Both the position numbers and the translations under genes were made by a program. The notes beneath the pieces were generated by a model, which had not been told where the DNA came from, ran no database searches, and worked only from the letters and a program-made list of their open reading frames with translations. From Ruthenibacterium sp. (GTDB taxonomy: Bacteria; Bacillota; Clostridia; Oscillospirales; Ruminococcaceae), in the NCBI GenBank assembly GCA_036642215.1, contig JAVXUG010000001.1:11896-75895 (forward strand): a DNA stretch of 64,000 bases, written 5' to 3'. Positions 52,473 to 64,000 of this stretch are shown here, in pieces. Numbering within the stretch: position 1 is the stretch's first letter; each line of letters begins with the position of its first letter.

Positions 52473-52716
52473 AAAAACACCCTTTCTGTATCTGTTGAAT
52501 CCATATATTGTTATTATATAGTATTTGCGAGCAGAGTGCAATTTTCATTTATGTATTTTGCGTGACTTTAAATACTTTCTTTCTTTTGAAAAATTTGGTA
52601 TACTAATATCGTTATATGGTATATGTGCCAAAGCGTAAGATGTCGCATCGCATCAAGGCTTTCCCCTGCCGCCGTCACCGGCGGTGCAAACGCACGTGTA
52701 AGAAGGAGAATTGCAT

Positions 52717-53892
52717 ATGAAAATAGCTATTTTTACGGAAACCTATTTTCCGTTTATCAGCGGCATTGTCACGCATATCAAAACGCTGAAGGACGCTCTG
52801 GAAGCAGAGGGTCACGAGGTGCTGATTGTCACCTCCAACCCCAAAGCCACACATCACTATGTCAAGGACGGCGTGCTGTACTGTCCCGGCATCCCGCTGA
52901 AGCGCATCTACGGCTATGGCTTTTCCAATCCGCTGAATGTGCAGCGGCTCAAAATCATCAAAGAATTTAACCCGGACATTCTTCATATCCACACAGAATT
53001 CAGCATGGGTATTTTTGCCCAGTTTGCCGCGCGCAAGCTGAAAAAGCCCATCGTTTATACCCTGCACACGATGTATGACGATTATTTGTTCTATGTTGCG
53101 CCGGAAAAGTTCCAGAACATGGTTAAGCCGGCCGCACATTTATACTTTCGGAAAACGGCCAATCACGCGACGGAGGTAATCGGGCCGTCGCTGAAGGTTG
53201 TGGAATTTTTGCGGCGCTGCGGCGTAGAGCGCCATATTAACATCGTGCCCAACACGGTTGATTTATCTGATTTTCTGCCGCAGAACGTCTCCGCCAAGGA
53301 GGTCGCTGACATCCGCGAAACGCTTGAGATTCATGACGGCGATGTCGCCATGTGCTTTGTGGGTCGGCTTGGCAAAGAAAAAAGCATTGATGTGCAGATT
53401 GATTTTCTCGCGCGCTATTTTAAAGATGATTTGCGCTATAAGCTGTTTATTATTGGCGACGGACCTGAGCGCGAAAATTTAAGCCGCCAGATTTTAACCC
53501 TGGGGATGCAAAAGCAGATAAAGCTGCTGGGTCGTATTGAACACGCCGCCCTGCCGCCCTATTATCACGCCTGCGATTTATTCACCACCGCATCGCTGTC
53601 GGAAATCAACTCCATCTCCATGCTGGAAGCGATGGCAAGCGGCCTGTATATTATTCAGCGCTATGACTTATACAACAAAAACCAGATCATCGTCGGTGAA
53701 AATGGCGCAACCTACACCACTGCCGAGGAAATGGCTGCACTCCTGCGCGAGGAATGCGCCCTATCCTCCGCGCAGCGCGTCACGCGCCGCGCTACGGTCA
53801 CTGCATGCGCCACGCGATACGGTTGCAAAGAGTTTGTCGCCGCCGTGATGAATGTATATCAGCGCGCCCAGCGGGAATATAAGGCAAAATAA
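52717..53892 (+). CDS. GT4 glycosyltransferase (diacylglycerol glycosyltransferase-like)
   Basis: KIAIFTETYFPFISGIVT, HIHTEFSMG, YTLHTMY, FVGRLGKEK and SEINSISMLEAMASG. Confidence 0.9.
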   Translation: MKIAIFTETYFPFISGIVTHIKTLKDALEAEGHEVLIVTSNPKATHHYVKDGVLYCPGIPLKRIYGYGFSNPLNVQRLKIIKEFNPDILHIHTEFSMGIFAQFAARKLKKPIVYTLHTMYDDYLFYVAPEKFQNMVKPAAHLYFRKTANHATEVIGPSLKVVEFLRRCGVERHINIVPNTVDLSDFLPQNVSAKEVADIRETLEIHDGDVAMCFVGRLGKEKSIDVQIDFLARYFKDDLRYKLFIIGDGPERENLSRQILTLGMQKQIKLLGRIEHAALPPYYHACDLFTTASLSEINSISMLEAMASGLYIIQRYDLYNKNQIIVGENGATYTTAEEMAALLREECALSSAQRVTRRATVTACATRYGCKEFVAAVMNVYQRAQREYKAK

Positions 53893-53964: not shown

Positions 53965-54012
53965 GTAAAAAGCTGCCGCACCGTCCTAGAAATACGGTGC
54001 GGCAGCTTTTTT
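53965..54012. terminator. Bidirectional terminator embedded in a longer imperfect inverted repeat
   Basis: aaaaagctgccgcaccgt...acggtgcggcagctttttt. Confidence 0.8.
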
Positions 54013-54175: not shown

Positions 54176-54409
54176 TCAAAATGCCTCGTTCTCAATGCGC
54201 TGCACCATTTTTAAAAGTCCGGCGGCGCTGTTGAAGTTTTCCGGGATAATTTCCGTTGCGGGAATGGAAATATCGTATTCATCATTCAGCAGATTGATTG
54301 TCTGGATGATATCAAAAGAGCTGAACAGCCCATCATCAATCAGTGTTGTACAGGTTTCGTAGTCAATGCCATCCTTGACTTCTTGTAAAATTTCGATGAT
54401 TGCTTCCAT
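54176..54409 (-). CDS. Acyl/aminoacyl carrier protein (DltC-like)
   Basis: Acidic 77-aa protein with LIDDGLFSSFDII and IIPENFNS. Confidence 0.88.
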   Translation of the reverse strand: MEAIIEILQEVKDGIDYETCTTLIDDGLFSSFDIIQTINLLNDEYDISIPATEIIPENFNSAAGLLKMVQRIENEAF

Positions 54410-54410
54410 G

Positions 54411-55613
54411 TTAAAATTCTCCTTTTAAAATTGTATTCAAACGATAACTCTCGATTGCTTCGCGCTGAAGTAAACTTCCCTGCGCCTCGCTGTAAAGCAA
54501 AATGCGCGGCATTGCACGGCTTAAAAAAAGCAGCAGCCCTTCGGTTACGCTGTACGCGCCAAGGTTTTCAAACACAAGAATATCACCTGTGGCAAGCCCC
54601 TCCATGTGCACCTTGCGCACAAGAATATCAGCTGTTGTACAAAGGCTGCCGCACAGTGTCCAGTCCCTCGTCTGTGCCTCCTGTAGGATCGGCGCGCGTT
54701 CAAAAGCGTGGAAATGCCGGATCATCGGCACCTTCATCCCCATCATCTGCCCGTAATAATTGACGTGATGGATGCCGCCGTCGACAAGCGCATACGAGGT
54801 ATCACCGTTTTGCTTGCAGTCGGTCACGGTCGTGAGGTACGAACCGCATTGCGCTGTAAAAAAACGTCCCATTTCCACGGTGAGCTGAAACTGATCCGAC
54901 AATCGCCGCAGATGCGGTGCAATCTCTTTCAGCATATCATACCGCGTCTCGAAATTATCGTCCTCAAAATATGGCACGGAAAGACCCGGACCGTATTCTA
55001 TGCGCTCGCATGAAAAGCCGCACTCCTGCCGAAGACGCGCGCAAAGCGTTTCCAGCCATGTCAGCTCACGCTCAATTTCCTGCACACGCTTTTTTTGCGT
55101 TCCCGTAAAAAAGTGAATCCCGACAAAGTGCAGAGCCGGATAATCGGCACTGCACCGGACAATATCCGCCAGCACCTGCTCGTCCATGCCGAACTGACTT
55201 TGATGCGCCACGCGCAGCAGCACCGGAATCACGCGCTTTTGGGCGCTTGCCGCGCTTTGCAGCAGTTCCACCTGGCGCAAGCTCTCCGCCGTGTACAGCC
55301 CCACATCGTCCGCCAGCGCCTGTTCGATATCCTGCGGCGTTTTGCTTACGCCGGAAAACAAAATGCGCTGACGGGAAATGCCAAGCTCCTCGCAGATGTG
55401 TAATTCGCCCGGACTGCACACCTCAAGCCATTCTACATGGCGCAGCATTTCCCGTATCAAAAACGGATTTGCCTTGATGGAATAGCACAGATGAACGTTT
55501 GAACCCAGAATCTCCTGTACCTGCGCCATATGCAGGGAAAGCACGTCGGTGTCAAAGACAAAGCACGGCGTTCCGTACTGCGCAGCAATTGACCGCAAGA
55601 CAGCCTCCGTCAT
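54411..55613 (-). CDS. PLP-dependent group IV decarboxylase (diaminopimelate decarboxylase/BtrK-like)
   Basis: YGTPCFVFD, YSIKAN (PLP Lys), EVCSPGE, GIHFFTGTQ, VEMGRF, GSLCTTAD and GAYS. Confidence 0.88.
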   Translation of the reverse strand: MTEAVLRSIAAQYGTPCFVFDTDVLSLHMAQVQEILGSNVHLCYSIKANPFLIREMLRHVEWLEVCSPGELHICEELGISRQRILFSGVSKTPQDIEQALADDVGLYTAESLRQVELLQSAASAQKRVIPVLLRVAHQSQFGMDEQVLADIVRCSADYPALHFVGIHFFTGTQKKRVQEIERELTWLETLCARLRQECGFSCERIEYGPGLSVPYFEDDNFETRYDMLKEIAPHLRRLSDQFQLTVEMGRFFTAQCGSYLTTVTDCKQNGDTSYALVDGGIHHVNYYGQMMGMKVPMIRHFHAFERAPILQEAQTRDWTLCGSLCTTADILVRKVHMEGLATGDILVFENLGAYSVTEGLLLFLSRAMPRILLYSEAQGSLLQREAIESYRLNTILKGEF

Positions 55614-57148
55614 CGTGTGCGCCCCCTCTCCCGTGTGCTTTGATAATCCGCCAAAAGCTTTTGACGGTCAATTTTTCCGTTTTTTGTCATGGGCAGAACG
55701 TCCTGATGCACCATGGCATTGGGCTGCATAAACGGGGGAAGCACTGCTTGCAGCGCTGTCAAAAGCGCTGATTTTTCACCCACTCCGTCATAAAACGCAA
55801 GCAGCCGCTTTTTTTCCGGCCAATAAATGCAGCAGGCGCGGTTTACCCCTGCCTGCGTCTGCAGCACCGTTTCTATCTCGCCCAATTCGATGCGGTGCCC
55901 CATATGCTTAATTTGAAAATCCTTGCGCGACGCATATACAAGGCTTCCATCCTCTTGATAGCGCGCAAGATCGCCGGTGCGATACATGCGCTCCGGATAT
56001 GCCTTGTTCAGCGGATTTTGCACAAAGCTTGCCTGTGTTCGTTCAAAATCATTATAATAACCAAGTGCCAATGCCGTCCCGCACACACAGATTTCGCCTA
56101 AAATGCCAGGCTCCGTCACCGGCCTGTTCTGTTCATCCAGCAACAGTATCTTCTCATTGGGAAACGGCCTGCCCAGCGGCAGCGTCTCCCCCTGTGAAAA
56201 TGCCCTGTCAAGAATATAATAAAAGCAATTGCACGTAATCTCCGTTGGACCGTACACATTGACATACCGCGCATCCGGTAAAAATTCGCGCCAAAGGTTC
56301 AGATGCTTTATGGGCATGACCTCTCCGCTGAAAATAATCTGCCGCACACTTTGAGGCGTTTTGTACGCAAGCCCCTGCATTGTTGTGACAAAGCACAGCG
56401 CGCTGACCGCCCAAATCAGCGTTGACGGTTTGCGCTCGCAAAGATAATCCATCAGCTTTACCGGCTGACTGAAATAGGCGCGCGGAATAAGCTGTACCGT
56501 TGCCCCCGTTGCAAGTCCGCTGTAAATATCCTTGACGGACACATCAAAATCGAACGGTGCCTGATTGCCCAGCACATCTGCCTGCGTAATAGAAAAGATT
56601 GCGGTAAATTGGTCGATAAAATCAATCACCGAGCGATGTCCGACCACCACGCCCTTTGGCACACCCGTGCTGCCGCTTGTAAAGTTTGCATACAGCGGGT
56701 CAAGGTCTGTTGCCTGTTCGCGTACAGCGCACAGCAGCACGCCGTCCGGTGTGTCCTGCGCTGCTTGCTCCAAGAAAACAATCGTGCCCTCGAAGGAAAG
56801 CGCCTCCGCCAGCGCACGGTTTTCCTCGTCCACAAGCAGTATGTCCGGTTGCAGCACCTGTAAAATCGTCTCCAGCCGCGCACTCGGATGCTTCACATCA
56901 AGCGGAACATAAAAGCAGCCCGCATAAACAGCGCCAAGAAAGCCCGCAACCGTAAGCGCGCTTTTTTCCGTCAGCACGGCAATGGGTGTGCGCGTTTTTG
57001 CCCCTTGCCGGATCAGCACCGTGCCAACAGCGCGGGCACAATGCAGCAACCGGGCAAAGCTCAGCGTATTGCTTTCGTCGGCAAAGGCCGCTTTTTGCGG
57101 TAGGCGCTCAGCGGAGCGCTCCAAATATTCCAGTACGCTTATTTGCAT
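55610..57148 (-). CDS. Stand-alone amino acid adenylation domain (DltA-like)
   Basis: FTSGSTGVPKG, PFDFDVS, NVYGPTE, YRTGDL, QIKHMGHRIELGEIE and NGKIDR. Confidence 0.93.
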   Translation of the reverse strand: MQISVLEYLERSAERLPQKAAFADESNTLSFARLLHCARAVGTVLIRQGAKTRTPIAVLTEKSALTVAGFLGAVYAGCFYVPLDVKHPSARLETILQVLQPDILLVDEENRALAEALSFEGTIVFLEQAAQDTPDGVLLCAVREQATDLDPLYANFTSGSTGVPKGVVVGHRSVIDFIDQFTAIFSITQADVLGNQAPFDFDVSVKDIYSGLATGATVQLIPRAYFSQPVKLMDYLCERKPSTLIWAVSALCFVTTMQGLAYKTPQSVRQIIFSGEVMPIKHLNLWREFLPDARYVNVYGPTEITCNCFYYILDRAFSQGETLPLGRPFPNEKILLLDEQNRPVTEPGILGEICVCGTALALGYYNDFERTQASFVQNPLNKAYPERMYRTGDLARYQEDGSLVYASRKDFQIKHMGHRIELGEIETVLQTQAGVNRACCIYWPEKKRLLAFYDGVGEKSALLTALQAVLPPFMQPNAMVHQDVLPMTKNGKIDRQKLLADYQSTRERGRTR

Positions 57149-57168
57149 TTTGTTCCTCACTTTTCGCA

Positions 57169-58644
57169 TCAAACCTGCGGTATTTCAAAATGAATCATGG
57201 TGAATTTTTTTGTATCTGCATCATAGGTAGCGCCGATGGTCGGCATTTTCATAATTTTATCGTACAGCAAAATGCGAAGTCCGTTCTGAGCCGGAAATTT
57301 TGATTCTCCGTTCTGATAAATATCCGACGCATTTGTCGCGCCTCCGTTGCTTTTCAGCTCAAATTCCCAGTCACCGCAAGCAACTGCTTTTTGCAGCAGC
57401 TCATCCCCTGCTTCCTCGTATACCTTGCCGTCATCCAGCACGGCAAGATAGCTTGTATCCGGCGTATGAAATACCGCTTCTATCTGTGTCAGCCCAAGCC
57501 CTCTGCAGGCATTTTTAAAGGCATCCGGCAGCCCCGTCAGCTTTGAATTTGCCGTAATCATAATGGTGTAATCCTTGCTTTGCTGCGCAAGCCAGGACAC
57601 AAATTGCGCCGACTCCTTGGGCGCATGATCCACCACCCACATCATGCGATAAAAGCTCTCTGCCGCATGGTCGTGTTCGTCACGGGCAGGATTTTCCTCC
57701 GGCGGCTGCAATTTGCAGGAAGCCTTCAAAAATTTTCCAAGATCGCGCGTGACAACCAAGCCCCCGGCGGGGTTTACATGTCCCGCATTGTACATCTGCG
57801 TTGTAAAGTCAAACCCGATTTGCTTTCCGCGCACATCGCAATAATTCAAAAATGGGATGCCGTTTTCTTTTGCATATTCCGCCAGCCACGCAAAGATAGG
57901 CTGCTCCTTCTCTGTATATTGGTACGGTGTCATTGTAAAAACAAGCTGTAAGCCCTTGTTTCTGCACAGCTTTACAATCTTATCAAGCCACTTCACAGCG
58001 GTCGGATACGGCTCCTGCGGTGTCAAGCCCTCAGCGGGTGCAGGCACATGACACGACTGCGTTGCTATACGCGGCAGGTATCCCTTTAAATAGCTTTTCT
58101 GCTTGTGTGCATCGTACAGAAAAAAGTTTTCATCAATGAACTTCCAGCGCGTATGATAACGAACCAGCGGCAGAAAATCAACCGGGTTTCTTCTGTCCTC
58201 TCCACAAGTTGCCACAGTTTGCGTCATCGCAAGAGAGTTTAAGGAAGCATCCAGTTTAAACGCATTTTTATAGTTGGAATCATCCACATAGGTAGGTGTT
58301 TCCGCCGTATTGCCGTACATCATCCCATAAAGATCAAGCACTACGGCACTTGGATTTTGTGTGCGCAAGGCTTCTTTGATATAATAATATGAAATCCACA
58401 TGGTCTGATCCCAAGAATACACATTATGGGAAGAAATTCCATATTCTTTCCACAGTACCCCCGGTATAAAAGTACAATTTGCATGACTGGAGCCTACCAG
58501 AAGAACATCCACAGTGTTTTCGGGTTCGGAATAAAAACCGGCAAGCAGCGTGTCACGTTCCCGCAAAAAATAGCTGAGCCATGATAGCGTAAGTACGCAC
58601 AGCAGAGCAAATGCGGCAAAACGAACCCCTTGTCTTTTTGTCAT
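57169..58644 (-). CDS. Membrane-anchored SGNH/DltD/AlgJ-like extracellular protein
   Basis: N-terminal TM; VLLVGSSHA (GxS block) and MYNAGHVN (position of the DxxH block); located between the MBOAT and A-domain genes. Confidence 0.7.
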   Translation of the reverse strand: MTKRQGVRFAAFALLCVLTLSWLSYFLRERDTLLAGFYSEPENTVDVLLVGSSHANCTFIPGVLWKEYGISSHNVYSWDQTMWISYYYIKEALRTQNPSAVVLDLYGMMYGNTAETPTYVDDSNYKNAFKLDASLNSLAMTQTVATCGEDRRNPVDFLPLVRYHTRWKFIDENFFLYDAHKQKSYLKGYLPRIATQSCHVPAPAEGLTPQEPYPTAVKWLDKIVKLCRNKGLQLVFTMTPYQYTEKEQPIFAWLAEYAKENGIPFLNYCDVRGKQIGFDFTTQMYNAGHVNPAGGLVVTRDLGKFLKASCKLQPPEENPARDEHDHAAESFYRMMWVVDHAPKESAQFVSWLAQQSKDYTIMITANSKLTGLPDAFKNACRGLGLTQIEAVFHTPDTSYLAVLDDGKVYEEAGDELLQKAVACGDWEFELKSNGGATNASDIYQNGESKFPAQNGLRILLYDKIMKMPTIGATYDADTKKFTMIHFEIPQV

Positions 58645-58659
58645 TCCTCTGTTCCTCCG

Positions 58660-60222
58660 TTAAAATTTAAAATAGATAAACGGTGTCGGGTCATATCCCG
58701 GTCCATATACGCCAAACAGCACAACGGACACAATGCCGCCAAGCAGAATAAACCAGCGAATGGGAAGCTCCTGCCGGTTGATCCAGTCGCGCACGCTGCC
58801 CTTGCGGCTTGCAAGACTTACACAAAGCAGCACAAGCATTGCGATAGCCGCAACGGCAAGTTCTTTTGTGTCAAGGCCAAGATTTTGAATAAACGGACCA
58901 AACAGCACCCATGGATTCCATTTTGAAAACAGCCGCACGGTTAAATCCTTTGCCATGGTGAGACTTGTGCTGCGAAAAATCATTTCTCCGAAGCACACAA
59001 GGAAAAAGGTGCGAAGAATCTGAATGATTTTAAAGCATTGACTTTGCCGGTTTACGTGCAGCAAACCGCTGACGCGGTCAAAGAGCGGAGCCGCCGCCAT
59101 TCCCAAAATGACAAGACAGCCGTGATACAGTCCAAACGCTATGTACTGCATTCCCTCACCGTGCCACAGCCCATTGCACATCCAAAGTGCCAGGAGAGAG
59201 AGGCAGGCCGGCAGCCATTTTCCGGCGGTTTTCCCAAAATGCTTTGCAGACCATTTCCCAAGCTTTGCCATCGGCTTGCTGAGTGTCAGCGGATAGAACA
59301 CATAGTCGCGCAGCCATGTGCCAAGCGTAATGTGCCAGCGCCGCCAAAACTCCGAGATGCTTTTGCTGAAAAAAGGGCGTTTGAAATTTTCCGCATAGGA
59401 AATGCCAAACAGTTCCCCCACGCCACAGGCGATATCAATGCCGCCGGAAAAATCCGCATACAGTTGAATGGTGTAAAGTGCCGCGCCGATTGCAATCTCA
59501 AATCCCTCGTAGCGCCCATACGCTTCAAAAATAGATGTCACAATAATATTCAGCCTGTCTGCAATCACCAGCTTTTTAAAATATCCCCAAAGCATACGTT
59601 CCAAGCCCAGCACGAACCGGTCATAATCAAAGGCATGCTCTGCGCACAGCTGCGGCGCAAGCTGGTCAAACCGACTGATAGGTCCCTCAATGATTTGCGG
59701 AAAAAACATCGTGAACAGCAGCGTTTTTAAAAGACTTTTTTCTGGCTTTACCTTGCGGTGATACACATCAATGACATATCCCAGCACCTGCAAGGTATAA
59801 AAAGAAATGCCGACAGGCATCAGCAGGCGCATCTGCGGCAAAAAGGCAAGCTGTTCTGCTGCCATATTATAAAATTTAAAACAAAAAAGCAAGCCGAGAT
59901 TCGCTGCCAAAAACAGCAGCAAAACAATGCGAGACCGGCTCTTGTACTTCTTTTGCAGCTCTTTTTTTGCAGCGCGATCCAATGCGGGATTGGCTGCAAG
60001 CGCGGCCTGCTGCGCGGCGTACTGTGCGCCCATCCACTGCGCAGCCATCCATGTGGTGATGCCCGAAAAAAGGACAAACGCAATATATTTTTTTCCAAGC
60101 ATTGCGTAAAAAACAAGGCTGAATCCTAAAAGCAGCAGCCATTGAAAACGCTTGGGAAGCAAATAATACGCCAAAACGCATACCGCCAAAAACAGGCCAA
60201 ATTCTAATGTTGTAAAAAGCAT
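58660..60222 (-). CDS. MBOAT-family O-acyltransferase (DltB/AlgI-like)
   Basis: PVGISFYTLQ, YVIDVY, FFPQIIEGPI, YADFSGG, ENFKRPF, EFWRRWHITL and GLWHG. Confidence 0.95.
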   Translation of the reverse strand: MLFTTLEFGLFLAVCVLAYYLLPKRFQWLLLLGFSLVFYAMLGKKYIAFVLFSGITTWMAAQWMGAQYAAQQAALAANPALDRAAKKELQKKYKSRSRIVLLLFLAANLGLLFCFKFYNMAAEQLAFLPQMRLLMPVGISFYTLQVLGYVIDVYHRKVKPEKSLLKTLLFTMFFPQIIEGPISRFDQLAPQLCAEHAFDYDRFVLGLERMLWGYFKKLVIADRLNIIVTSIFEAYGRYEGFEIAIGAALYTIQLYADFSGGIDIACGVGELFGISYAENFKRPFFSKSISEFWRRWHITLGTWLRDYVFYPLTLSKPMAKLGKWSAKHFGKTAGKWLPACLSLLALWMCNGLWHGEGMQYIAFGLYHGCLVILGMAAAPLFDRVSGLLHVNRQSQCFKIIQILRTFFLVCFGEMIFRSTSLTMAKDLTVRLFSKWNPWVLFGPFIQNLGLDTKELAVAAIAMLVLLCVSLASRKGSVRDWINRQELPIRWFILLGGIVSVVLFGVYGPGYDPTPFIYFKF

Positions 60223-60464
60223 TATGCCTATCCGTCCTTTGCACAAGAAATTACCGTATGGGAGGGCTTTTTCTTTCATTGAAAAATTGTGGTAAATATC
60301 GTAAAATATGCAGAAAATTAAATTGCAAGCAGCTGTTTCCTAATTATACCATAGGATTGACGGTCTTTTCCACTTTTTATGCCATTTAACAGTTCATGAA
60401 CTTAAAAAAATGCGCAAAGCTTACAGGAATATTCTGTCTGACAAGCCATCCATACAGCCTTGTC

Positions 60465-60702: not shown

Positions 60703-61719
60703 TCACGCCATTCGAATACGGCTCTGAATGCGCACCTCCTTCAAAGCACCCTCCGCCCACCAGCCGCACGCAAACACGTCATTTCCGCGCTGTGTCGTCA
60801 AGTGAATCAATTGCTGTGCCGCTTCGTCTATCAGCGCATTGTACCGCTGCAGCGCCTGTCGGGCGCTGTCCCCTTGCAGTGCTCGTCCGTTTTGCGTCAG
60901 ACTTTCTGTCTTGCCGCAAAGCTGAATGAAAAGCATACCGTTGTCGTCGATTTCACGCTGCAAAAACAATTGCTGCGTGCGCAGCGTCGTCTGTGTTTTT
61001 TCAATTGACTGGGTTGTTTCAAGGCTTTGTGCTTTCCCCGAAAGCAGCAAGGTCAGCTGCATGGCAAGATCACGCAGCGTACACAGCGGCGTTCCGCTGT
61101 CATACAGCATCAGCTCCTCCACGCCCGTAAATTCATTCGCGTGTATTTGCAGAATGGGAAGATAACCATAAAAGTGCTCGTTTTCATCATAGCGAATCTC
61201 GTGAACACCGCATACCTTACTGCCCTTCCCTTTGCTTTTTTGCATCAATCGTTCGCTTTCCTCCACCACAACCGACACCTTTTCTTCCAACTGCGAAAAT
61301 TCCTCCCGTGTTGTATCCGTCAAAAACACAGATAAATTGGCGCGCGATACTTCCTCCGCACCAAAGTACAAAAGATAGTCTGACGCGCTGTCAAAGGTGT
61401 GCGGGCCAAGCAGCAAAAGACGATTTTGTGCATAAAACGGTTTTTTATTTTGCTTTTTTTCTGCCGCCTTCAGTGCCTGCTCGATGGTGGCACCCTCACC
61501 GGTATAAATGCGTGCCTCGCTCCGTGCCTCTGCCGTATTGGCACTGGGCGCGCAGGTGTAAACAACCAGAGCCGACTGCACCATCCCGTTCGACTCATCC
61601 AGATAGATTCCTTTTACAATCGCGCGCTCACTGAGGGGTACAAACGTACTGCACCCGCAAAAAGCAAGACTTAGGATCATGCACTGTGCCAAAAGGATCA
61701 CAGCTCTTTTTTTACCCAT
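60703..61719 (-). CDS. Ger(x)C-family germination receptor lipoprotein
   Basis: Lipobox-like LAFCGC, ERAIVKGIYLD, GEGATIEQAL and KPFYAQNRLLLLG; third gene of the gerA-B-C operon. Confidence 0.78.
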   Translation of the reverse strand: MGKKRAVILLAQCMILSLAFCGCSTFVPLSERAIVKGIYLDESNGMVQSALVVYTCAPSANTAEARSEARIYTGEGATIEQALKAAEKKQNKKPFYAQNRLLLLGPHTFDSASDYLLYFGAEEVSRANLSVFLTDTTREEFSQLEEKVSVVVEESERLMQKSKGKGSKVCGVHEIRYDENEHFYGYLPILQIHANEFTGVEELMLYDSGTPLCTLRDLAMQLTLLLSGKAQSLETTQSIEKTQTTLRTQQLFLQREIDDNGMLFIQLCGKTESLTQNGRALQGDSARQALQRYNALIDEAAQQLIHLTTQRGNDVFACGWWAEGALKEVRIQSRIRMA

Positions 61720-62711
61720 ATCGTCCTCCCCTGTACACTGAGTACGCACGCAGCCAGCGCCGACAAGCTTGTCACTGCCGCTTGCCGCACAGCAGAGTGC
61801 ATTGCGGCGGCAGCCACAATGGCGATGAAAAGCAGCACGAACAGAATCCCGCGCCGCTTGCCTGCAGACAGCGCCGGCTTGAGAGCATAGAGCGCCTGTG
61901 CCGCCGCGCACAGCAGGATAGTACATTTCATCAGCATTGCAAGCAGCCAGACGCACAGATGAATTGCGTCAAGTCGGTGAAATACAGAAAGCCCGCCCAA
62001 CCGCGCCAGCGTATACATCGTCTGCGAATATTGCTGCGCACCGGTGCCCAGCACCAGTTCCGACAAAATTGCACCGCTGATTTGTACGACCGCAAGGCCG
62101 ATCAGCCCCCACGTCATTTTTTTCACGGGAAGCGCACCTTCCTGTTTGGAAGGCAGAACCCCAAACAGCAGCAGTGCCGATGGAAAGCGAAAATACACCA
62201 CGCACGCGCGCAGCAGATTTCCGGCTTTCGGCTCTGCGGGCTGTAGGTTCGTCACTTGCAGCTTGTCCAAATTTGCAATCCATAACAAAACAGCCGATGC
62301 CGCCAGCAGCCACAGCAGCAGCCCCGTTGCCCGCGAAAGCGCAGACCATCCGCAGTCGCACGCATAAAAGGCGACCAGCAAAAGCACCGCCAGCGTAATT
62401 GCTTCCGGCAGCGGTGTATCAATGCAAAAGCGATAAAATTGCTCCATATCCAAAAAAATGCAGGCAGATGAAAGCAACAGCGCCGCTCCTGACACGCCGT
62501 ACCATAATCTTCCCGCTCTTTCGGCGGTTGCATTGCTCCACAGCAAGACAACTAGACCGCACAACAGCGCAGTATCCAGCAGCACCGCCCACGTCGTCTC
62601 CCAAGCGGAAAATCTTTCCGTCTGACCAAATTGCATGATGAACGCATCACAGACAAGCGCCGCAGCATAAAGAGGCCACCTCCGGTCAGTGTCAAGGCTT
62701 TTCGCTTTCAT
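61698..62711 (-). CDS. GerAB/GerKB-like membrane germination protein
   Basis: About 10 TM segments with C-terminal HRLDAIHLCVW; lies between gerA and gerC. Confidence 0.75.
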   Translation of the reverse strand: MKAKSLDTDRRWPLYAAALVCDAFIMQFGQTERFSAWETTWAVLLDTALLCGLVVLLWSNATAERAGRLWYGVSGAALLLSSACIFLDMEQFYRFCIDTPLPEAITLAVLLLVAFYACDCGWSALSRATGLLLWLLAASAVLLWIANLDKLQVTNLQPAEPKAGNLLRACVVYFRFPSALLLFGVLPSKQEGALPVKKMTWGLIGLAVVQISGAILSELVLGTGAQQYSQTMYTLARLGGLSVFHRLDAIHLCVWLLAMLMKCTILLCAAAQALYALKPALSAGKRRGILFVLLFIAIVAAAAMHSAVRQAAVTSLSALAACVLSVQGRTIWVKKEL

Positions 62712-64000
62712 TTGCCCTCTCCCCCTTTGTATGTTTCCAAACACTGTAATGCGAATGCATCAGCCGTTTCCAGCCGGCACGAATCAGGCCGTCCCGAAGC
62801 GCGGCGCTGCTCGCCGGTGCAAAAGGCTCCGTGTACGGCAAGCCCATCACCTGCATACTGCAGGCATTGAGAAGCATCCAGAATGCAAGCACTACAATCC
62901 CAAGCGGCCCCAAAATCCCTCCCGCCAAAATAAAAGCAACACGCAGCCCCGTGACAGGCTCATACAGCGACGGCACCACATAGCCGCAGATCGCGGTCAG
63001 CGCAATGACGATAACGGTGGGGGTTCCCACAAGTCCCGCGCTGATGGCCGCATCCCCTACAATCAGCGCAGCAACAAGGCTGACCGACTGACCAATGGGC
63101 TTTGGCATGCGCAGACCTGCTTCCCGCACAAGCTCAAGCAAAAAATTCACAAAAAGCGCTTCTAAAAACAGCGGGAGCGGCGTTGCCTGCTCTGCCGCCG
63201 CAATGCGGTACAAAAGCTGCTGCGGAAGCAGCTCCGGCGTAAAATTCACAATGGCGACAAATACGCCCGGCAGCATGACGGCAATAAAGAACGCCGTATA
63301 TTTTAAGAGACGTACAAACGAGGCAAAATATGCTTTTTCGGTATAGTCATCCATGCTCTGAAAGTTTTCGCTGAAAAAGTGCGGTACAATCATAGCAAAC
63401 GGACTTCCGTTCACCAGAATGACTATTTTACCCTCACAAATTTTTGCTGCCGCAGTATCGGGTCGTTCCGTGTAGCCAACCGCTTGAAACGCCCCAAAGC
63501 TTCCCTCGCGCAGAAAGGCGGCCAGATATCCCGTATCAAACACAAACGGAAGTCTCGCTTTTTCAAGGCGCGCATACAGCTCCGCAAGAATTTTTTTTGG
63601 CACAAGGCTCGCGCTGTACAGCACAGCCATCTCCGTCTGCGTTTTTTCCCCGATGCGGCGCATCTCCACGCGCAAATCGCCCGTGCGAATCAAACGGCGC
63701 ACAAGGCTGATATTGACACGCAGCGGCTCCGTAAAGCCCTCCTTGCTGCCGCGCAGGTTTCCTTCGCTGCCCGCCTCCTGCACGGAGCGAAATTGCAGAC
63801 TTTGCGTGGCAATTGCCACGGCTCTTGCGCTGCCGTCAATCAGCACAACCCCCGCGCCGCTTGTCAGGCGTGTGCAGACGCTTTCCACGCTGTTTACGCT
63901 CTGCGTTTCAAGCGGAATTGCCGTGTCGTTCATCAAATATTGAAACAGCCCGTCTGCATCTGCGGGCGGTGCAGTCTCCTTGCTCAATCCGTCCAGCATC
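62692..64000 (-). CDS. GerA/GerKA-family spore germination protein (5' end outside the window)
   Basis: RGSKEGFTE, NISLVRR, YTERPD, GKIVILVNGSP, LVREAGLRMPKPIGQSVSLVAALIVGDAAISAG. Confidence 0.93.
   Translation of the reverse strand, partial: MLDGLSKETAPPADADGLFQYLMNDTAIPLETQSVNSVESVCTRLTSGAGVVLIDGSARAVAIATQSLQFRSVQEAGSEGNLRGSKEGFTEPLRVNISLVRRLIRTGDLRVEMRRIGEKTQTEMAVLYSASLVPKKILAELYARLEKARLPFVFDTGYLAAFLREGSFGAFQAVGYTERPDTAAAKICEGKIVILVNGSPFAMIVPHFFSENFQSMDDYTEKAYFASFVRLLKYTAFFIAVMLPGVFVAIVNFTPELLPQQLLYRIAAAEQATPLPLFLEALFVNFLLELVREAGLRMPKPIGQSVSLVAALIVGDAAISAGLVGTPTVIVIALTAICGYVVPSLYEPVTGLRVAFILAGGILGPLGIVVLAFWMLLNACSMQVMGLPYTEPFAPASSAALRDGLIRAGWKRLMHSHYSVWKHTKGERANESEKP

Follow-up and report, generated by a model that had tools for sequence, protein, structure and literature searches.

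What group does a Dlt-like surface-acylation operon attach when a decarboxylase is built into it? The question is raised by a locus in the window, by which we mean the whole 64,000-nucleotide stretch of Ruthenibacterium sp. contig JAVXUG010000001.1 that was analyzed and that belongs to a 2.2-Mb genome bin, 94% complete. Five consecutive minus-strand open reading frames encode, in this order, an MBOAT membrane acyltransferase (520 aa, positions 58660–60222), a membrane-anchored, DltD/PatB-like SGNH-fold acyltransferase (491 aa, 57169–58644), a stand-alone amino-acid adenylation enzyme (512 aa, 55610–57148), a BtrK-like pyridoxal phosphate (PLP) decarboxylase of fold type III and group IV (400 aa, 54411–55613), and a DltC-like carrier protein (77 aa, 54176–54409) with its phosphopantetheine site at Ser31. 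The intergenic gaps are 15, 20, −4, and 1 nt, bearing out the close linkage (no gap above 20 nt) that the original prediction had described. Starting from what was observed of gene content, folds, catalytic residues, co-occurrence, and covariation of the ligase pocket, we infer a substrate, a side-chain linkage, a product, and an acceptor: it is likely that Asp or Glu is linked to the carrier through its side chain, decarboxylated to β-alanine or γ-aminobutyrate (GABA), and esterified onto a surface polymer by way of an MBOAT tyrosine shuttle and the SGNH protein.

The five-gene arrangement is not a product of chance. Among 76 loci retrieved by means of the decarboxylase alone, the ligase is present in 68, the carrier in 62, the MBOAT in 57, and the SGNH gene in 56; because all five co-occur in 50 of the 76, in several gene orders, and in 24 of the 31 loci with complete 10-kb flanks, the association must be regarded as real. 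Natural adenylation–decarboxylase fusions, followed by carrier, MBOAT, and SGNH genes, were found as well (P0017, in locus L101, and P0022). In the three Solobacterium-type genomes that were checked, the adenylation and decarboxylase genes stand alone and an MBOAT–carrier–SGNH block lies elsewhere, so that the cassette appears to be split into two blocks. The cassette occurs in many anaerobes of the gut and rumen; its hosts are Lachnospiraceae, other Clostridia, Erysipelotrichaceae, and spirochaetes (19 loci, including the isolate Treponema sp. JC4), with Treponema making up about a quarter of the 76 loci; other cultured carriers are Lachnospira pectinoschiza M83, L. multipara ATCC 19207, and Bulleidia extructa W1219. 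Prevalence is modest, at 5 of the 299 Clostridia genomes sampled. This host tally sets aside records labeled Porphyromonadaceae, Streptococcus, and Campylobacter, which are bins and possibly misassigned; the ligases of L043 and L057 (bins labeled Porphyromonadaceae and Streptococcus pasteurianus) are almost identical, indicating recent transfer or misbinning. Genes for glycan synthesis adjoin 20 of the 76 loci and in Treponema include TagF-like, YidC-sulfatase, Wzx, and GT4 genes, and a cassette without MBOAT (L194) lies inside a polysaccharide locus.

The PLP enzyme (PF02784/PF00278) has BtrK as its closest solved structure, both by sequence (E 2e-39, about a quarter identical) and by fold (TM 0.86), with SbnH next. 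It scores 177 against the lysA profile TIGR01048 (cut-off 298) and 202 against TIGR03099 (cut-off 478). Its active-site residues are Lys47, which binds PLP, Arg134, His167, Glu247, Arg250, Cys325, Asp329, and Tyr354, and the family loop reads YYGQMMGM; Lys47, the Glu247-x-Gly-Arg250 motif, Cys325, Asp329, and Tyr354 are conserved across 131 family representatives taken at 50% identity. The enzyme has Cys-Thr, as do BtrK, SbnH, and VinO-like proteins, and lacks the LysA motifs Cys-Glu and R-x-x-L-Y; Cys-Glu is found in the true LysA of this genome, encoded on contig C6 (470 bits, cut-off 298). A phylogenetic tree places the family in a clade of its own, apart from LysA (99 support) and from the VinO-like proteins. 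Only 2 of 24 relatives in the genus have the decarboxylase, most of the 24 have LysA, and both carriers possess the full cassette in the same gene order. As judged from these sequence comparisons, the decarboxylase is not LysA. The expectation that such clusters are mis-annotated as dltA plus lysA holds for the decarboxylase, which source annotations call ‘diaminopimelate decarboxylase’ or ‘alanine racemase’, and fails for the ligase, which they call ‘amino acid adenylation domain-containing protein’.

The enzyme shows the sequence and linkage traits of carrier-dependent group IV decarboxylases: fold type III, the PLP lysine, Glu-x-Gly-Arg, Cys-Thr, and a gene that stands beside those of a carrier and a loading enzyme. 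Such carrier-coupled enzymes remove the α-carboxyl of side-chain-tethered Asp or Glu to give β-alanyl or GABA thioesters (PMC11350588, PMC11284099), and one of them, CtaF, is inactive on free Asp (PMC7183216). The closest plasmid matches are VinO-like genes that adjoin an adenylation enzyme and methylaspartate mutase, and a divergent branch of the window family itself is paired with a carrier and with VinN-type ligases bearing a short loop with Lys-Arg (L191, L196, and L198). Because of this pairing, activation through the side chain is supported for the window operon also. The divergent enzymes were seen in what resembles a biosynthetic cluster that recurs across loci (L191, L196, L198, and L199), which contains the VinN-type ligase, the carrier, radical SAM enzymes, an SbnA/CysK-like PLP enzyme, and NAD-synthase-like and FabH-like proteins. 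Another family member (P0023, 10 member sequences) carries an ADP-ribosylglycohydrolase fused at its N-terminus.

The adenylation enzyme (PF00501) passes the general amino-acid adenylation profile TIGR01733 (340, cut-off 317) and fails that of DltA, TIGR01734 (271, cut-off 560). At the pocket positions 235/236/239/278/299/301/322/330/331/517 (GrsA numbering), it reads D-V-K-I-I-S-V-C-N-K, a code that is near-invariant in 65 ligases adjoining the decarboxylase and that differs at all 8 variable positions from the DltA code, D-L-M-T-L-C-T-V-A-K (alignment to 3fcc). The traits of the DltA D-Ala pocket, Met239, Cys301, and Val-Ala at 330–331, are thus not those of the window enzyme. Other ligase subtypes paired with the decarboxylase are likewise basic at 239, with D-A-K in L097, L098, and L198 and Arg in L212, whereas sister ligases from loci without decarboxylase have Leu or Gln there in 78 of 79 cases and a basic residue in none. 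In the window ligase, position 239 corresponds to Lys206 of the protein. Half of the sister group (40/80) adjoins an MBOAT gene and 9 adjoin an AAC(3)-like gene; no decarboxylase was found near them in any of 38 full-flank loci. The basic residue at 239 would point to a second carboxylate in the substrate and hence to Asp or Glu. Side-chain-activating nonribosomal peptide synthetase domains (McyE, McyB2, and ACV synthetase) have Arg at this position, a parallel that we leave out of the evidence. The carrier matches the DltC profile NF003464 below cut-off (E 1e-5), and its Ser31 is invariant in 50 homologues.

Further ligases touch on this subject. Sister cassettes of ligase, carrier, MBOAT, and SGNH genes without decarboxylase (L108–L187, from metagenomes, and L068:8483-10263) have the pocket D-N-L-F-L-C-L-D-V/A-K, fall below the DltA cut-off, and probably represent another undescribed aminoacylation; L068 carries cassettes with and without decarboxylase side by side. 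The ligase of L212:1-4158, adjoining a carrier, a decarboxylase, and an MBOAT, combines Arg at 239 with the lack of Asp at 235 and probably differs in its substrate or in how it binds it. The source genome encodes another ligase with a carrier on contig C39 (also L102:6163-8537); the pocket of this ligase is closer to that of DltA (D-L-M, Val-Ala at 330–331), and the two genes follow one for an AAC(3)-like acyltransferase in the vicinity of genes resembling ABC-2 polysaccharide exporters; N-aminoacylation of a sugar is the likely function of this type.

On the export side, the MBOAT (PF03062, E 6e-13) scores 172.8 bits against the DltB profile TIGR04091 (cut-off 375). Its catalytic His354, in a WHG motif, and Tyr517 are both invariant in 58 homologues. 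The tyrosine belongs to a C-terminal hexapeptide, FIYFKF (58663–58680), equivalent to the FxYxxF motif whose Tyr serves as the acyl shuttle in DltX and PatA (PMC12148441); the length of the protein and the fusion of the shuttle to its C-terminus, rather than a separate DltX, are of the PatA/AlgI type. For the SGNH gene, no Pfam or NCBIfam match was obtained, and PF04914 (DltD) was not found in the 94% complete genome. Because no profile hidden Markov model supports it, the assignment was made by fold: an AlphaFold model (pLDDT 70.7) matches GDSL/SGNH proteins, DltD (6pfx and 3bma), and PatB (7tlv) with Foldseek E values of 3e-4 to 1e-3, DltD being matched about as well as other SGNH proteins. 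The motifs G51-S52-S53 and N286-x-x-H289 are present; G51, S53, P240, and H289 are conserved in 57 homologues, and the single hydrophobic segment, residues 9–27, is an N-terminal transmembrane helix. By these motifs the pair is a member of the Tyr-shuttle MBOAT–SGNH class. Residues ∼340–491 (57172–57627) form an ILEI/PANDER-like domain (TM 0.76–0.82) that is a lead, its ESM Atlas feature score of 0.87 lying under the 0.9 mark; most homologues lack it, and similar domains occur on sulfatase, LicD, EpsG, and GT61 proteins.

MBOATs of decarboxylase-containing cassettes and of cassettes lacking the enzyme intermix in a quick tree, and for this reason the sequences suggest one export arm with exchangeable loading modules. 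The same tree sets the cassette MBOATs mostly apart from six of the seven other MBOATs of the genome, with modest support (91) and two cassette rows on the other side. The MBOAT genes of the genome, eight in total, are on contigs C1, C3, C9, C10, C16, C26, C31, and C43, and most end in an FxYxxF-like motif. The C10 gene is followed by a 472-aa SGNH paralogue, 28% identical to that of the window, with no ligase or carrier nearby.

Judged by its genes, the operon works like Dlt, yet it is not dltABCD. Like the DltA, DltC, DltB, DltX, and DltD system for D-alanylation of teichoic acid, it brings together in one operon a stand-alone adenylation enzyme, a small carrier, a His-containing MBOAT, a Tyr shuttle, and a membrane-anchored SGNH protein. 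It differs in the additional decarboxylase, the ligase pocket, the fusion of the shuttle to a 520-aa MBOAT, scores under the cut-offs of all Dlt profiles, and the occurrence of this type of cassette in Treponema. With the O-acetyltransferases PatA/PatB and AlgI/AlgJ, it shares a long MBOAT with fused C-terminal FxYxxF and an adjoining SGNH partner. Dlt is the only characterized MBOAT pathway fed by a carrier, and pathways with a fused-motif MBOAT use acyl-CoA as donor without a carrier protein (PMC12148441); that paper does not list a fused-shuttle MBOAT alongside an adenylation enzyme and a carrier, the combination seen in the window.

The loading genes have their counterparts in natural-product pathways. 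A group IV decarboxylase acting with a carrier is found in butirosin biosynthesis (BtrJ/BtrI/BtrK, γ-Glu-carrier to GABA-carrier) and in closthioamide biosynthesis (CtaD/CtaE/CtaF, Asp-carrier to β-Ala-carrier), although the loader there is an ATP-grasp enzyme and the product enters an antibiotic. The vicenistatin (VinN/VinL/VinO) and fluvirucin (FlvN/FlvL/FlvO) systems possess the same trio of stand-alone adenylation enzyme, carrier, and PLP decarboxylase, and convert an aspartate-type acid to a β-aminoacyl carrier; their product feeds a polyketide synthase, and the window ligase, which shares only ∼21% identity with VinN-like proteins, does not have their Lys-Arg short loop. The exosortase A-associated pair TIGR03098/TIGR03099 consists of an AMP-forming ligase and a BtrK-like decarboxylase, with a carrier, at surface-glycan loci, but the window proteins score 180 against 592 and 202 against 478. 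A similar trio, on Paracoccus aminophilus pAMI5 (L190), lies in a proteobacterial glycan locus without MBOAT: genes for an AMP-ligase, a carrier, and a type III PLP enzyme are set among GT61 genes, one SGNH gene, and a gene resembling serine acetyltransferase.

In the proposed mechanism, the adenylation enzyme would activate Asp or Glu through the side-chain carboxyl and load it onto the phosphopantetheine of Ser31 on the carrier, whereupon the PLP enzyme would strip the free α-carboxyl to leave β-alanyl- or GABA-carrier. The MBOAT would then transfer the acyl group through the membrane to Tyr517 at its own C-terminus, and the SGNH protein would accept it on Ser53 and esterify a surface polymer, either a lipoteichoic-like polyol phosphate or a glycan. 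The resulting ester would present a free primary amine and hence an added positive charge. Each half of the scheme would follow chemistry established for relatives, the first two steps that of BtrJ/I/K, VinN/L/O, FlvN/L/O, and CtaD/E/F, and the last two that of DltB/X/D and PatA/B; carrier-tethered decarboxylation joined to an MBOAT–SGNH relay therefore predicts a β-Ala or GABA ester. The core of the original prediction, namely a BtrK-like enzyme acting on a loaded carrier, export by MBOAT and SGNH proteins, and a substituent and enzyme that are neither D-Ala nor LysA, is thus supported by the computational tests that were run. Of the substituents it offered (GABA, β-Ala, or lysyl), β-Ala is as likely as GABA, because the logic of VinN/VinO, FlvN/FlvO, and CtaD/CtaF resembles that of the operon no less than the butirosin pathway does, and the odds between Asp and Glu as the substrate are likewise about even. 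Its ‘wall polymer’ proved too narrow an acceptor in view of the Treponema loci, and surface polymer is retained as the acceptor class.

Several observations weigh against this proposal. The window locus contains no glycan genes, the LtaS-like proteins of the genome score far under cut-off, and position 286 of the SGNH protein, where the catalytic triad normally has its Asp, is Asn in the window copy but Asp in 91% of homologues. The searchable literature, which covers few subscription papers, yielded neither a description of the five-gene operon nor a β-Ala or GABA ester on a wall polymer. The association of Lys239 with the decarboxylase probably reflects one or two independent events rather than many, because the DVK and DAK ligases, the two principal groups with Lys239, branch as sisters (96 support in a quick tree of adenylation domains). 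The window ligase also lacks the VinN signature, having a normal-length loop and Cys-Asn at 330–331 in place of the short loop and Lys-Arg. (VinN-type features were taken from the plasmid genes L188 and L189, called VinN-like from their methylaspartate mutase neighbors, and from matches to 3wv4/3wvn, which we take to be VinN.) It keeps Asp235 too, and ordinary α-activation of Glu, which would leave no free α-carboxyl to remove, is possible on this sequence; side-chain activation is deduced from the decarboxylase, not from the ligase pocket.

The same pocket, with Asp235 and its loop of normal length, would suit a racemase or epimerase that works on the carrier: L-Glu or L-Asp would be α-activated, the α-carbon of the thioester inverted, and a D-acidic amino acid esterified to the polymer, giving a zwitterionic, net-neutral substituent. 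The D-A-K at 235/236/239 of L097-type ligases, which we take to resemble Glu-specific nonribosomal peptide synthetase codes, may be counted here. Fold type III includes alanine racemase, and there is a weak match to PF01168; GPG forms the Gly loop, and Gln replaces His167, which stacks on PLP, in 37 of the 131 family representatives. Glu247, Cys325, Asp329, and Tyr354, however, constitute the decarboxylase set, the top structural matches are all decarboxylases, and the known chemistry of the VinN-type ligases with which the family also pairs is decarboxylation. Walled bacteria already supply D-Glu and would presumably gain little from a carrier-bound racemase. We regard this route as unlikely.

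Loading and decarboxylation might instead proceed as proposed and deliver the group to something other than a polymer, such as a glycolipid in the membrane, a lipid-linked precursor, a protein at the surface, or a small molecule that is then released. The lack of polymer genes in the window locus would fit, as would the 56 of 76 loci that have none of the glycan clusters counted, the adjoining diacylglycerol glucosyltransferase-like gene, though that is convergent and not conserved, and the one lineage in which the decarboxylase is fused to an extracellular transglutaminase-like domain. On the other hand, envelope polymers are the acceptors of all characterized Tyr-shuttle MBOAT–SGNH pairs (PMC12148441), L194 and the copies in Treponema are inside glycan loci, and a transglutaminase-like neighbor is present in only 1 of the 76 loci, all of which makes a non-polymer acceptor unlikely.

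A lysyl ester, the third substituent originally suggested, would require that diaminopimelate be α-activated on the carrier and decarboxylated at its distal center in the manner of LysA. The standard α-type pocket with Asp235, a fold-III enzyme acting at a free α-amino-acid end, and Lys239 as a possible ligand of the distal carboxylate are in accord with this route, which is nevertheless very improbable: it is the least likely of the three substituents because no acidic side chain in the pocket could receive the distal amine and because Cys-Glu of LysA, like R-x-x-L-Y, is missing from the decarboxylase, and lysine itself could be activated directly. Least credible is an ordinary LysA or free-amino-acid decarboxylase that came by chance into a dlt-like operon for D-Ala or Gly, as the database name diaminopimelate decarboxylase might imply, for although this gene is the sole lysA-like match in Bulleidia, Solobacterium, and one incomplete 1.1-Mb bin, Treponema JC4 has a closer lysA match that passes the cut-off, Lachnospira has one of 278 bits, and the source genome has its true lysA on C6; the separate clade, the fusions with the adenylation enzyme, the pocket covariation, and the patchy distribution in the genus all count against it.

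The transglutaminase fusion belongs to a single lineage of 20 clusters, 71–95% identical (P0001–P0021 except P0017; L097:10001-13201 and L098:10001-12910), in which the decarboxylase makes up the N-terminal part of a protein of ∼1000 aa; after it come a low-complexity linker, one membrane helix, Ig-like repeats, and a transglutaminase-like domain that retains its Cys, His, and Asp. The ligase with the D-A-K code, the carrier, the MBOAT, and the SGNH gene lie directly downstream in L097 and L098. A general link between decarboxylase and transglutaminase was rejected, given the single neighbor among the 76 loci and the origin of the 20 fusion proteins in one lineage. For this lineage we can speculate, as an improbable refinement of the proposed pathway, that an unbranched amine offers a handle for cross-linking of surface proteins.

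The boundaries of the window operon are consistent with a discrete unit. A σ70-like promoter match (TGGAAA-18-TATAAT, extended TG; consensus match only) is located upstream of the MBOAT gene on the same strand (60343–60372). A second in-frame ATG precedes that gene at 60279, and homologues begin at the Met at 60222; the adenylation gene starts at 57148 with an ATG and a Shine–Dalgarno-like site. An 18-bp inverted repeat without mismatches, ending in A/T runs (53967–54011), is probably a bidirectional terminator that separates the operon from a convergent GT4 glycosyltransferase gene (52711–53892, plus strand), whose product resembles monoglucosyldiacylglycerol synthase (NF049988, below cut-off). 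This gene was rejected as an operon member on account of its strand and orientation and of a GT4 match in just 1 of the 76 loci. Immediately upstream are spore germination genes of the gerA/gerB/gerC type (60703–63999, minus strand), which are not kept across related loci and were rejected as conserved neighbors.

The operon thus appears, from sequence, to join a Tyr-shuttle MBOAT–SGNH arm to a loading module taken over from thiotemplated natural-product biosynthesis, a combination of known chemistries that was found in no paper of the searchable literature. There is an even chance that gut, rumen, and oral anaerobes, spirochaetes included, possess a modular family of carrier-fed MBOAT–SGNH systems with swappable loading modules, of which the decarboxylase module yields β-alanyl or GABA surface esters, a decoration without a described example. 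The corrected annotation matters in itself, as lysA and alanine racemase labels can produce false calls of lysine biosynthesis in metabolic models. If the proposed pathway is true, the ω-aminoacyl ester would be invisible to assays specific for D-Ala, and it would add positive charge as D-Ala does, which could affect resistance to cationic peptides and surface recognition; an effect on recognition by host or phage is speculation. Together with its sister cassettes, the operon suggests that gut anaerobes without canonical dlt aminoacylate their surfaces with other groups, drawing on a chemistry so far known only from antibiotic biosynthesis.

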